A model generated the notes under the pieces. It saw only the letters and a program-made list of their open reading frames with translations. It searched no databases and was not told the DNA's origin. A stretch of 64,000 nt of DNA from NCBI GenBank assembly GCA_965237955.1, contig OZ250169.1:4064001-4128000 (forward strand). The letters run 5' to 3'. Shown here piece by piece: positions 48,854 to 54,273 of the stretch. The translations under genes were made by a program, and so were the position numbers. Each line of letters opens with the position of its first letter. The first letter of the stretch is position 1. The stretch is from Candidatus Marinacidobacterales bacterium (GTDB lineage Bacteria > Acidobacteriota > Vicinamibacteria > Marinacidobacterales > SMYC01).

Positions 48854-50145
48854 TGCAGATCACCGGTTTCGAAACTCAGGACATTCGCTTCCCGACGTCC
48901 CGTGAATCCGACGGCTCGGACGCGATGAATCCGGACCCGGACTACTCGGCGGCCTACATCATTCTCCATACCGACGACGGGCACGAAGGGCACGGCCTCA
49001 CGTTCACCATCGGCCGCGGGAACGATCTGTGTGTCGCCGCTATCGAGCAACTCGCCGAACGTGTTTCCGGCCGTAGTCTCTCCTCCATCACGTCGGACTG
49101 GGGTGCCTTCTGGCGCGAGCTCACCGGCGACAGCCAATTGAGATGGCTCGGGCCCGAGAAAGGTGTCGTCCACCTCGCCACCGCGGCGGTCGTAAACGCT
49201 TTGTGGGACCTCTACGCGAAGGCCGAAGGGAAGCCGCTATGGCGGCTTCTGTGCGACATGAGCCCGGAGGAGATCGTGCGCTCCATCGATTTTCGTTACA
49301 TCACGGACCTCGTCACGCCCGACGAAGCGCTCTCGATGCTGCAAGAGCTGGAGCCAACCAAAAACACTCGCATACAGGATGTCCTCGAGCGGGGCTATCC
49401 CGCGTACAACACGTCGGTCGGGTGGATCGGCTATAGCGACGAGAAAATACGCGGACTGTGCCGCGATGCGCTCACGCAGGGATTCACGGCGTTCAAAATG
49501 AAGGTTGGCCGCAACGTCGATGACGACGTCCGCCGCGCGGCTCTCATGCGTGAAGAAATCGGCCCGGATAACGCGTTGATGATGGATGCGAACCAGATAT
49601 GGGATGTGGACGAAGCCATCCACTGGATGGAACGTCTCTCCGAGTTTCGACCGCTATGGATCGAGGAGCCGACGAGCCCGGACGACATTCTCGGCCACGC
49701 TGCCATCGCAAGGGCGGTCGCACCCATCGGGGTCGCGACCGGAGAGCACGGTCACAACCGCGTGATGTTCAAACAGCTCCTTCAAGCAAAAGCGATCGCG
49801 TTCTGCCAGATCGATAGCTGCCGTCTCGGAGGGGTGAACGAGGTGCTCGCGGTGTTGTTGATGGCGGCCAAGAGCGGTGTTCCCGTCTGTCCCCACGCAG
49901 GTGGTGTCGGACTGTGCGAGTACGTACAGCACCTGTCGCTCTTCGATTACGTTTGTGTCAGCGGATCGATGGACGGACGCATGATCGAATACGTCAACCA
50001 CCTGCACGAGCACTTCGAAGACCCCGTGGTCGTCACCGAAGGCAGGTATCGCGCACCCGAACGTCCGGGTTATGGCATCACCATGAAGAAGGCGTCGCGA
50101 GATGCGTTCTCATTTCCGAATGGTGATGCGTGGCAGCACCACTAG
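48853..50145 (+). CDS. L-fuconate dehydratase (enolase superfamily)
   Basis: DIRFPTS..GSDAMNPDPDYS, WLGPEKG, KMKVG, DANQ, WIEEP, ATGEH, CPHAGGVGLCE. Confidence 0.88.
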   Translation: MQITGFETQDIRFPTSRESDGSDAMNPDPDYSAAYIILHTDDGHEGHGLTFTIGRGNDLCVAAIEQLAERVSGRSLSSITSDWGAFWRELTGDSQLRWLGPEKGVVHLATAAVVNALWDLYAKAEGKPLWRLLCDMSPEEIVRSIDFRYITDLVTPDEALSMLQELEPTKNTRIQDVLERGYPAYNTSVGWIGYSDEKIRGLCRDALTQGFTAFKMKVGRNVDDDVRRAALMREEIGPDNALMMDANQIWDVDEAIHWMERLSEFRPLWIEEPTSPDDILGHAAIARAVAPIGVATGEHGHNRVMFKQLLQAKAIAFCQIDSCRLGGVNEVLAVLLMAAKSGVPVCPHAGGVGLCEYVQHLSLFDYVCVSGSMDGRMIEYVNHLHEHFEDPVVVTEGRYRAPERPGYGITMKKASRDAFSFPNGDAWQHH

Positions 50146-50160
50146 ATCACCAAAAAACGC

Positions 50161-50231
50161 TTGACAGGTGTGGCAGACGTCTTTACCCTACATCTAGTGT
50201 TAAACACTATTCCTCAACCCACATTTTGTTT
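50161..50231 (+). promoter_or_regulatory. Sigma70 promoter overlapped by tandem NrdR-like boxes
   Basis: TTGACA-17 bp-TACCCT; boxes ACCCTACATCTAGTGT (50185) and AACCCACATTTTGTTT (50216), 31 bp apart. Confidence 0.65.
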
Positions 50232-50291
50232 TCGCACGTCTTCATCGGGGCGGTTTACCGCTCTAGTCCGTGAAGAGAGGAGGTGATTCGA

Positions 50292-50366
50292 GTGGCGAAG
50301 AGGAAAAAGAAGGCTGCCAAGAAGGCTGCAAAGAAAACGAAGAAGAAGGCTGCAAAGAAGAAGTAG
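50292..50366 (+). CDS. 24-aa Lys/Ala-rich histone-H1-like microprotein
   Basis: SD GAGGAGGTGA; GTG start; MAKRKKKAAKKAAKKTKKKAAKKK; below the ORF-track cutoff. Confidence 0.8.
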   Translation: MAKRKKKAAKKAAKKTKKKAAKKK

Positions 50367-50382
50367 CGACTTCCTCAGGGGT

Positions 50383-50416
50383 AGAGGGGGGGTGAGGATT
50401 CCCCCCCTCTTTTTTT
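50383..50416 (+). terminator. Intrinsic terminator
   Basis: AGAGGGGGGG-TGAGGATT-CCCCCCCTCT-TTTTTT. Confidence 0.9.
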
Positions 50417-50772
50417 GTCTAGTCACTTCTTCTCGCCGATGACGCCCATTGCCACGGGTGCGATGGCACACCGGCCGGGAGGCATGCGACGAGAAAAGCC
50501 CCCACGCGGCGTGACCCAGCTTGGCAACGTCAGTGCCGCTCGCTTCGGCCGTGTTTCGCGCGAGCGTCTCGATTCTGCCGCGGAGCTTTTCCACCGTCTC
50601 GCGGTCCCGGGCATGGATGAAGTAACCACTGGGTGGCTCGCTCGGGAACGATGGATGGGATGGTGCCACCTTCGACGAGGATGTGATTCATGACGACCAG
50701 AGCCAGCACGACGGCGCCTATATAATAATGTAGTAGAAGTACCCGATTGTCTCATCGACATACCTTCTTTTC

Positions 50773-51681
50773 TCAAAGCTGTGCCCACAGGTCTTCTTCG
50801 GGCGGAAGCGGCGCGCGTCCGGTCATTCCCTCGCATTTGCGTGCAGCGGTGAGGTTTGCGAACCGCGCCGCGTCGCCCACCGACTTCGTTTTCAAAAACG
50901 CATGGGTGAAAGCCCCGTGAAACACGTCGCCGGCACCGGTCGTATCCATTGCCTCGACCGCGACTCCCGGGAGTTGGAAAAAAGGCTCGTCCCGGCTCAT
51001 GAGAGCGCAGCCGTCGGCGCCCAAGGTCACGCCGGCAATGGCCGGACCGTTGGCCGGGAGTTTGTCGACGATTTGGCGGACAAAATCTTCCACGTTATAG
51101 CTCGGGCCCAGAAGCGCCGATGGATACGTATGGGAGAAGATGGCGACGTCGCTGAGTGTGATGAGATCATCGACGCCATCGCGCGGGTGGCCGCAGTCGA
51201 GGACGACGAGGCCTCCTGCTTCGCGCACGCGCTCAGCCGCTTGGAGCTGCACGTCGATCTTTCTGGCGTCGAGCAGGAGCGCGCGGCAATCGTCGAAAGG
51301 CAGAGTGCGGACGTCGTCCCACGTCAGCGGAAAACCGACACCTCGCGGTGCTTCCAGGATCGTGCGGCGGCCGTTCTCGACGACGATGACGCTTGTCTGC
51401 GATTCGAACCCATCGCGGACCGCGATCGCGTCGGTGTTGATGTTCTCGCGCTCCAAGCCGTCCACGAGGAAACGGCCTCCGATGTCGTTGCCTATTAGCC
51501 CCGAGATCGCGGTCTTGCGACCGAAACGCGCCATGGTGACGAGTGCCGTCGGCACCGGACCTCCGCCGGACTCGTGCATCTCGCGGGCGGGGAGTTTTTC
51601 GTCGGAGTCGGGATAGCGATCCATGAGAACGGTGAAATCGCGGACCACGAGTCCCACACCGATGGCGTCCCATTGGGTCAT
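50773..51681 (-). CDS. PfkB-family carbohydrate kinase
   Basis: GGGP, DTTGAGDVFHG. Confidence 0.92.
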   Translation of the reverse strand: MTQWDAIGVGLVVRDFTVLMDRYPDSDEKLPAREMHESGGGPVPTALVTMARFGRKTAISGLIGNDIGGRFLVDGLERENINTDAIAVRDGFESQTSVIVVENGRRTILEAPRGVGFPLTWDDVRTLPFDDCRALLLDARKIDVQLQAAERVREAGGLVVLDCGHPRDGVDDLITLSDVAIFSHTYPSALLGPSYNVEDFVRQIVDKLPANGPAIAGVTLGADGCALMSRDEPFFQLPGVAVEAMDTTGAGDVFHGAFTHAFLKTKSVGDAARFANLTAARKCEGMTGRAPLPPEEDLWAQL

Positions 51682-53111: not shown

Positions 53112-54198
53112 TGCCTTGGTGCACAACTCCGATAGAGGCCGAGAGCTCGCTTGGCCCCGACTCCCATCATCCGATCATCTCGCTATCAGGCATCCCGAGC
53201 GCCGTCATCGTGTTGAGAATCTTGCACCCGATCCTTGCCTCGACTCTCTGTGCCGCCAACCCTCTCGCTCGCATCGCTGAGCCCACGATAGCCTTGTAGC
53301 GATGGAACGTTGTCTCGACTTTGCTCCGTTTGCTGTAGCCCGATTCTGTGTGCCACTTTCGTTTGCCGAGCCGAGCTTGTGCTGCAATGTTGCGATTGCG
53401 CTGTCGGCTGCTCGCCGGCCCCGATGCGAGCTGGGCGCCCTTGCGCGGCGGTATCAGCACCCTCGGCGAGCAATGAGCGCTGTGATTCTCGATCGCCTCA
53501 TAGACGCCGCCGGCGTCGTATGCGGTGTCAGCTCTGGCCGATGAGATGGGACTGTCGATCTGTCCGACAAGCGATGCAACCCGCGATGAATCGCGGGCTC
53601 TTTTGCTCGTCAGCTCGCCGGCGACGACTTCGCCAGTCTGCTCGTCGACACACAGATGGAGCTTGCGATAGTCCCTGCTCTTTGGTGCTCTGCGCAGCTG
53701 GCCGGCGTGGACAGCGAGACCGCTGCTGTCGATCAAGATGTGCAACGGCGTCTTCTGCTTGTCTTGGTAGAAGGGGACCTTACCCAGCTTCGCCTTGCGC
53801 CTCGAGATCGTGGTGTGATCGGGCACATCATTGTCTAGCTTCATCAGAGCGAACAACGATCGCAGCAATCCCTCGCTCTGCCTAGATGACAGATGAAACA
53901 CCATGCCCAGGGTGACAGCCGTCTCGATGGCGTGGTTCGAGTACTTGCGTTGACGGCCCGGTTTCCTCCTCCTCGGCCGGGGCGCGTCCCAGTTCACAAG
54001 CTTGCCGGCGGTGAGCGAGATCCAGACGGTCAGGCTCCCACGGTTGCGTAGACCCGCCTCATATTCACGCCAATTCCTCACGCGATAGGCCTTCTTCACA
54101 TACTTCCGCTGAGTGCGTTTGAAAATGCTCATGGGGAACCTCGAATCCGTGAGTAAAGGACAATTGTGGACCGAGATCGCGAGTTGTGCACCAAGGCA
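53112..54198 (-). mobile_element. IS5-family element, copy B (transposase 54132-53167)
   Basis: Same 18-bp IR and 1087-bp length as copy A; protein differs at S/T in EQxGE; no TSD. Confidence 0.95.
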
Positions 54199-54273
54199 GC
54201 CCATCGCGACCTATTCTGCGTTCTGGTTCGCCTGGGCCGCCTTCAACCGAGACACGGAGATTTATTCCCCGTC
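54196..54273 (+). repeat. 3' end of a DUF3179-like gene; exact 78-bp inverted copy of 63303-63380
   Basis: Base-by-base identity; encodes QPIATYSAFWFAWAAFNRDTEIYSP. Confidence 0.92.

Follow-up and report, generated by a model that had tools for sequence, protein, structure and literature searches.

Positions 50161-50416 of the window, by which we mean the whole 64,000-nucleotide stretch analysed, hold a unit of about 220 nt on the forward strand, composed of a sigma70-type promoter, a Shine-Dalgarno (SD) sequence, a very short open reading frame and a terminator. The −35 hexamer TTGACA (50161-50166), of which TTGAC is invariant in a 10-unit alignment and present in 42/42 units of the set described below, is separated by a 17 bp spacer from the −10 hexamer TACCCT (50184-50189), and transcription presumably starts at about 50196. 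The −10 is overlapped by NrdR-type box 1 (50185-50200), which covers 5 of its 6 bases together with the putative start and matches the NrdR consensus at 13 of 16 positions, with all six core positions matched. TACCCT departs from TATAAT at the position where the box needs a C; it has only three of six matches, and a consensus promoter scan thus called no promoter at the unit. NrdR-type box 2 (50216-50231) follows 31 bp after box 1, i.e. with a 15-bp spacer, and matches 10 of 16 positions, again with all six core ones.

Further downstream, the leader hairpin (50239-50276) appears in the minimum free energy fold and, with a covarying inner helix, in the consensus fold, where an alternative pairing of its 5' arm with the SD is predicted. 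Five of the 15 consensus pairs are changed on both sides among 11 leaders. By its stability alone, the hairpin named in the preliminary description is unexceptional (z −1.0). The SD GAGGAGGTGA (50277-50286) is complementary to the 3' end of the 16S rRNA in the genome. The micro-ORF of 24 codons (50292-50366) runs from a GTG start to a TAG stop and encodes a peptide of 24 aa with the starting M, 14 K, 7 A, 1 R and 1 T, a pI of 11.65 and a charge of about +14.5. It is followed by an anti-SD-like 3'-UTR motif, GACTTCCTCAGGGGTA (50368-50383), conserved among paralogues and relatives, and by an intrinsic terminator (50383-50416) with a 10-bp stem (50383-50410) and a U tract. The promoter, the two 16-mers 31 bp apart with their 13/16 and 10/16 matches and intact cores, the strong SD, the GTG ORF with its 14 K, 1 R and 7 A, and the terminator had all been described earlier at these places and are confirmed; the conserved 3'-UTR motif and two paralogous units of the genome were absent from that description.

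The upstream neighbour is a gene for an enolase-superfamily sugar-acid dehydratase on the same strand, which has its own operon, and the downstream neighbour is a PfkB kinase gene (50773-51681) on the opposite strand. Hence, the unit is not the leader of the downstream gene, and a leader-peptide attenuator was rejected, as no co-oriented gene follows the terminator. The best downstream frame, called heuristically, is on the opposite strand in most units. At 53167-54204 the window contains a transposase-like ORF with copies elsewhere in the genome, which we take to be of IS5 type.

The genome of 8.13 Mb and 60% G+C holds two further units with ORFs of 22 and 83 aa. Both share TTGACA, the SD, the 3'-UTR motif and the terminator with the unit in the window, and in both a box lies across the promoter region. 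The combined promoter and box pattern is found in 26 of the 55 genomes of the order, namely in 18/18 genomes of its own family (f1), 7/8 of a second family (f2) and the source genome itself. None of the 28 genomes of a third family (f3) matched with this pattern, and a reversed control pattern gave no match across the same genomes. All 30 matches that were fetched out of 41 lead to a Lys-rich micro-ORF. With one near-identical unit merged and one chance motif match without an ORF dropped, the unit set comprises 42 distinct units; they stem from two families and 26 genomes, and 17 are of the short-leader type, to which the unit in the window belongs, and 25 of the long-leader type. The reading frame is kept in all 42 units at ORF lengths of 14-62 codons, and the composition across units is 61% K, 25% A and 8% T. 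The ORFs draw on both Lys codons and all four Ala codons, and they differ in length by gain or loss of KKKAA or KKKAT units. GGAGG lies 7-11 nt ahead of the start in 41/42 units, and a G/C stem with a U tract follows every aligned unit. The 3'-UTR motif is present in 3/3 paralogues of the genome and in 18/18 f1 and 6/8 f2 genomes. The stand-alone micro-gene proposed from the single sequence is thus conserved, jointly in ORF, SD and boxes, and it is covered by RNA contigs.

In one paralogous unit (L072, G000:C1:1834955-1835330, where G000 is the source genome) the leader, about 207 nt long, folds strongly, and the 3' motif is predicted to pair over the SD; this unit diverges from what is presumably a tgt-like gene. 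The third paralogue (L243:1221-1469, G000:C1:6941721-6941972) encodes an 83-aa product with a basic, probably helical insert; it has promoter, box pair and 3' motif in common with the other units and gave no NCBIfam match. ORFs or N-terminal tails that are rich in Lys and Ala but lack the promoter and the 3' motif are also located at G000:C1:1976391-1976837, 7004870-7005622, 6699894-6700361 and 1902766-1902837.

Near-identical contigs over 50212-50380 are present in seven RNA runs from four studies; the contigs carry neither strand nor level. Those of three studies begin at 50223-50226, and the DNA-like run X11 continues further upstream, which gives a weak hint that these contigs start with the gene's own transcript at this promoter. 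Strain variants in the RNA contigs comprise R to K, K to R and A to T exchanges and one in-frame extra AAG. The shared 3' contig ends at 50377-50383 reflect an assembly break, because the DNA-like run X11 breaks there too. The flanking genes have no near-identical RNA contig in the seven runs; these runs were chosen with this stretch, contig gaps are uninformative, and depth does not rank the genes.

The regulator presupposed by the boxes is encoded in the genome, where nrdR (C1:4717793-4718260), with Zn ribbon and ATP cone, is intact and full-length (TIGR00244, 191 bits with a cut-off of 124.65, positions 1-147 of 147), and it was found in 6/6 genomes tested, five of which are other Acidobacteriota carriers of the micro-ORF. 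NrdJ is the only PF02867 match, i.e. the genome has one ribonucleotide reductase (RNR), and the nrdJ promoter contains a 32-bp box pair with boxes of 17.2 and 19.3 bits. Of 30 nrdJ promoters of the order, 20 provided the 26 sites for a symmetric box matrix, and the other 10 gave no pair. Scored with this matrix, box 1 of the micro-gene reaches 19.3 bits, rank 3 in the 8.1-Mb genome, and it is the only one of the eight genomic 13/16 sites that has the full core; box 2 scores 10.2 bits. Pairs with both boxes of at least 10 bits at 31/32 bp occur five times in the genome, at nrdJ, this micro-gene, lexA, BFN-parA-parB and a lytic-transglycosylase-like gene, with 0.02 expected under independence. 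Spacings of 33-34 bp also hold six pairs, which come from a repeated element. In the accessible text of PMC12051234, spacers of 15-16 bp are described as common and best-binding, the optimum for four NrdRs.

Box 1 scores 10.3-19.3 bits in 42/42 units, and its positions 6, 8, 11 and 13 are invariant in all of them. The offset of +31 averages −0.7 bits, whereas the averages of the 44 others range from −11.9 to −38, and box 2 is above 0 bits in 21/42 units, at or below 0 in the other 21 and lost in at least four. Of the tandem NrdR-like boxes described before, box 1 thus matches the nrdJ operators and is conserved, whereas box 2 is weak. The box lies over −10/+1 here and upstream of −35 in L131 and L140, two micro-genes of other lineages; as its position relative to the promoter varies among lineages, the box follows the operator and not the promoter core. 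Judged by its sequence features (nrdR in the genome, a box, a second box at 31-32 or 42 bp and promoter overlap), the micro-gene would belong to the NrdR regulon.

The same boxes are found at other genes. Upstream of smc (L233), box pairs are found in 5/5 near relatives, and smc of distant genomes has a box of at least 11.7 bits in 5/5 cases, two of them paired. BFN-parA-parB (L234) has pairs in 4/5 cases. A pair precedes one lexA of the source genome (L235), strong pairs occur at 2/10 lexA loci of relatives, and recA (L256) has a weak box of 12.5 bits. HU/IHF genes had a box at 0/20 loci. The genome background for boxes is 44 of 6834 crudely called genes. The boxes common to smc and parAB would fit a chromosome role of the micro-gene. 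NrdR-type boxes are also seen upstream of mraZ (L236) and at L232.

The known NrdR regulon has operators at nrdAB, nrdDG and nrdJ and single boxes at topA (Pseudomonas) and dnaA (Shewanella). The micro-gene resembles it in the 16-bp consensus, the two boxes three helical turns apart, the overlap with the RNA-polymerase site and the presence of nrdR. It differs in that the target is not an RNR gene, that micro-gene, smc, BFN-parAB and lexA are paired and that box 2 is weak. In E. coli and P. aeruginosa, as far as the available text of 10.1101/2025.03.28.645925 goes, box pairs are confined to the operons of RNR, and single boxes at other genes leave expression in nrdR mutants unchanged by RNA-seq; the same text cautions about false-positive boxes. 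An earlier study reports, in its accessible part, that NrdR acts on topA through one box (PMC4409342).

The ORF is a member of a widespread MAK..KKK micro-gene class. A GTDB pattern scan, from which 80 loci were taken of at least 120, contains among the matches listed 65 loci that are in-frame ORFs of at most 21 aa; as the pattern fixed both ORF ends, the scan yields neither the frequency of the class nor its full length range. The matches listed come from Planctomycetota, Alphaproteobacteria, Actinomycetota, Bdellovibrionota, Rokubacteria, Armatimonadota, archaea and others. Removal of 3 own-lineage, 6 archaeal and 2 short-flank loci left 54 micro-ORFs of other bacteria, of which, among the matches listed, 9 have a box of at least 12 bits within 300 nt. 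In the same listing, such a box occurs in 0/53 regions further upstream, 1/54 downstream, 0.7% of shuffles, 0/15 long ORFs and 0/6 archaeal micro-ORFs. The Fisher p of 0.0002 for these 9/54 listed matches is overstated by kinship, because four of the positives come from related alphaproteobacteria. Pairs at 31/32 bp make up three of the nine (L131, L140, L169, again among the matches listed), and one positive (L170) sits within an upstream open frame. Since 45/54 micro-ORFs elsewhere are without a box, NrdR control does not define the class. Among 301 sampled Acidobacteriota genomes, 10 matched a similar micro-ORF pattern; 9 of these 10 further micro-ORFs have a promoter box of at least 10.5 bits, and 3 have a 31-bp partner. 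NrdR-type boxes on micro-genes of other lineages are new here.

The neighbours of the micro-ORFs are heterogeneous among 109 flanking frames, many of which are heuristic and unnamed. L170, from a Brocadiales record, is an 11-aa member immediately upstream of smc, and the frame upstream of it has no Pfam match at 1e-5. L167 and L181, from Rokubacteria records, are tandem pairs of 11-12-aa micro-ORFs, and the frame upstream of L181 matches AbiEi_2.

The micro-gene lies outside every profiled protein or RNA family searched. Pfam (24-, 41- and 62-aa members) and NCBIfam gave no match for the peptides, the best NF038053 score being 9.9 bits with a cut-off of 80 (62-aa member), and PDB gave none at E 10. 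In Rfam, the best E value for 49800-51000 of the window is 0.81, and 20 loci of other phyla have no match. An exact look-up in a protein collection found 0/10 reference peptides, of which seven are informative, as L250 is off-frame and two GTG-start references may mismatch a stored Met. The ESM Atlas returned unnamed hypothetical clusters with low recognition (1066), a weak result. The literature searched, mostly outside subscription papers and supplements, has no description of the gene class or of a link to NrdR. The accessible text of PMC5082802 holds nothing on such peptides.

Among known systems, chlamydial Hc2 (HctB, PF07382), Bordetella BpH1 and the Burkholderia H1-like proteins are similar in their Lys/Ala/Thr pentamer repeats, and HC2 is the nearest named Atlas cluster in 17% of members, a weak lead. 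Hc2 varies in length through in-frame gain and loss of repeats, according to the available part of PMC2848022, and in-frame length variation by Lys/Ala pentamers is found in these micro-ORFs too. However, the micro-gene has 14-62 aa vs 149-237 aa in those proteins and three lysines per pentamer vs two basic residues, its product has no other domain, and neither the PF07382 nor the NF038053 profile matches. The KPAA tail of AlgP (AlgR3) has a similar H1-like Lys/Ala composition, and HupB and HupS carry H1-like tails. In AlgP and HupB/HupS these tails sit on folded domains, whereas the micro-protein is free-standing and without proline. The ribosomal proteins bS22, eL41, bL37 and bTHX are likewise small (24-33 aa), very basic and often unannotated, with a GUG start in Borrelia; unlike the micro-protein they are fixed in length and sequence, and no profile or PDB match connects it with them. 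For bTHX the genome has a gene of its own, at another locus that TIGR04560 matches. The rreB/rreR genes of alphaproteobacteria are also small stand-alone mRNAs with a strong SD and a GTG start, and their product is an unstructured peptide of 14-18 aa, but their SD has 17 nt vs about 10 nt here (PMC5711450, text seen in part). The accessible text of that paper, whose peptide sequences are in figures, never contains the words 'lysine' or 'charged'.

We suggest, with about even confidence, that the micro-gene, NrdR-repressed and replication-coupled, encodes a short, unstructured Lys/Ala polycation like an H1 tail, which would cover DNA and neutralise it. To begin with, the sigma70-type promoter, SD, ORF and terminator make up a unit that RNA contigs cover. 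NrdR loaded with dATP/ATP would then bind box 1 over −10/+1 together with the weaker box 2 and dampen initiation, and when dATP is low NrdR would be released and the micro-gene would rise together with nrdJ; this step combines the sequence with established NrdR biochemistry.

The micro-gene would in this way join a module of chromosome-handling genes that is switched on when DNA synthesis demands precursors, since smc, BFN-parA-parB and one lexA, which presumably are regulated alike, have these operators upstream too. The peptide itself would act by charge alone, with its length free (14-62 aa) and its composition fixed. The combination of free length and fixed charge argues for a charge-only polycation rather than a pocket-filling ribosomal protein, and the operators common to nrdJ, smc and parAB make DNA the candidate polyanion. 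Composition alone picks no target, as any polycation binds DNA in vitro. We infer that the peptide works like a free H1 tail, and the chromosome compaction suggested in the preliminary description is a candidate role. The leader and the 3' UTR contain anti-SD-like stretches, which are predicted to limit translation.

The proposed DNA-coating polycation has to be weighed against four other explanations. A small ribosome- or RNA-binding protein of the bS22/eL41/bL37 kind, which would fill a basic rRNA pocket while the boxes only tune its expression, is unlikely in our view. Borrelia bS22 does resemble the peptide in size, basicity (61% K/R), GUG start and missing annotation (PMC10618245, accessible part), and PF08213 had no match in 5/5 genomes tried, so that the bS22 pocket may be empty. 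Yet this silence is weak, as the profile matched in only 2/14 controls. A length of 14-62 aa set by repeat gain and loss and two to three coexisting paralogues are unlike a pocket-filling protein, the peptide has no PDB match, and the Pfam-named neighbours among the 109 flanking frames include no ribosomal-protein gene. We also hold it to be rather improbable that the peptide serves as an unspecific counter-ion of polyphosphate and other polyanions, or as a bridge from them to the chromosome, a function proposed for the KPAA tail of AlgP. According to the available text of PMC9239181, polyphosphate granules are evenly spaced only if AlgP has its H1-like tail; the compositions of tail and peptide are similar, and evolution by charge alone would suit any polyanion. 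This reading leaves the operators common to nrdJ, smc and parAB unexplained, however, and no polyphosphate gene is found among the named neighbours in those 109 frames.

The RNA instead of the peptide might be the main actor, as an abundant small mRNA or dual-function RNA of which the strong SD holds ribosomes in the manner of rreB or the invariant 3' motif pairs with SD regions, and little peptide is made; we give this the same low probability as a polyphosphate counter-ion. The 3' motif is conserved more than the ORF, is complementary to the SD and can close a small hairpin over the stop codon. It pairs with its own SD region at −15.7 and −19.2 vs about −10 ± 3 kcal/mol for shuffles, and its predicted pairing with the 5' UTR averages 0.72 in the long-leader paralogues; the rreB precedent combines a long SD and a GTG start with weak translation (PMC5711450, in part). 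In the type of the window, though, this long-range pairing is predicted to be weak (0.15). Cognate pairs of 3' motif and SD region have no advantage over permuted pairs (p 0.38 and 0.61), a cross-phylum signal is absent (p 0.10), and with no covariation to support it we treat the pairing as a hypothesis. Moreover, what persists from phylum to phylum is the reading frame and the amino-acid alphabet, not the UTRs, and the RNA has no Rfam match. The stop-codon hairpin gives −2.98 at 72 micro-ORF loci vs −1.65 ± 0.14 in the control, where kin are not independent. At these 72 loci the bases past the stop often pair back onto the last Lys codons. The least probable explanation is that the boxes are not read by NrdR and reflect promoter conservation or another regulator, e.g. 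the lexA paralogue that has such a pair, with the peptide constitutive or stress-controlled. The overlap of box 1 with the −10, the pairs at lexA loci of the source genome and its relatives, the weak box before recA and the motif in repeated elements of the genome would agree with this. Against it, the invariant box positions reach past the −10, the matrix from nrdJ promoters agrees with the known NrdR consensus and spacing, the placement of the box varies between lineages, and nrdR was present in 6/6 genomes tested.

In a wider sense, we put forward tentatively, with less confidence than in the polycation itself, that in Acidobacteriota and several other lineages NrdR may run a replication-coupled chromosome programme of RNR, SMC, ParAB, LexA and an H1-tail-like micro-protein, and that orphan MAK..KKK micro-genes may be overlooked minimal nucleoid proteins. 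Such an NrdR programme, if it exists, would be the bacterial counterpart of the S-phase co-expression of histones and RNR. Gene callers miss the poly-lysine micro-genes, which are spread over many bacterial phyla and also present in archaea, and from their composition trypsin-based proteomics would hardly see such peptides. The class had no functional clue, and the conserved NrdR-type operator links it to DNA metabolism. The pairs before smc, parAB and lexA challenge the view, based on E. coli and P. aeruginosa, that pairs are found only at RNR operons.

We also note 13 elements of 88-108 bp in the source genome (see also L237 and L241), which are bounded by inverted repeats that contain TTGACA; their sites include G000:C1:411312, 591234, 749372, 806798, 1070330, 1785329, 2664088 and 6445820. 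An internal NrdR-like box pair at 32-34 bp is present in 11 of the 13. The elements are possibly MITEs or IS ends carrying operators, and one of them adjoins an ORF which we take to resemble IS21 istA.
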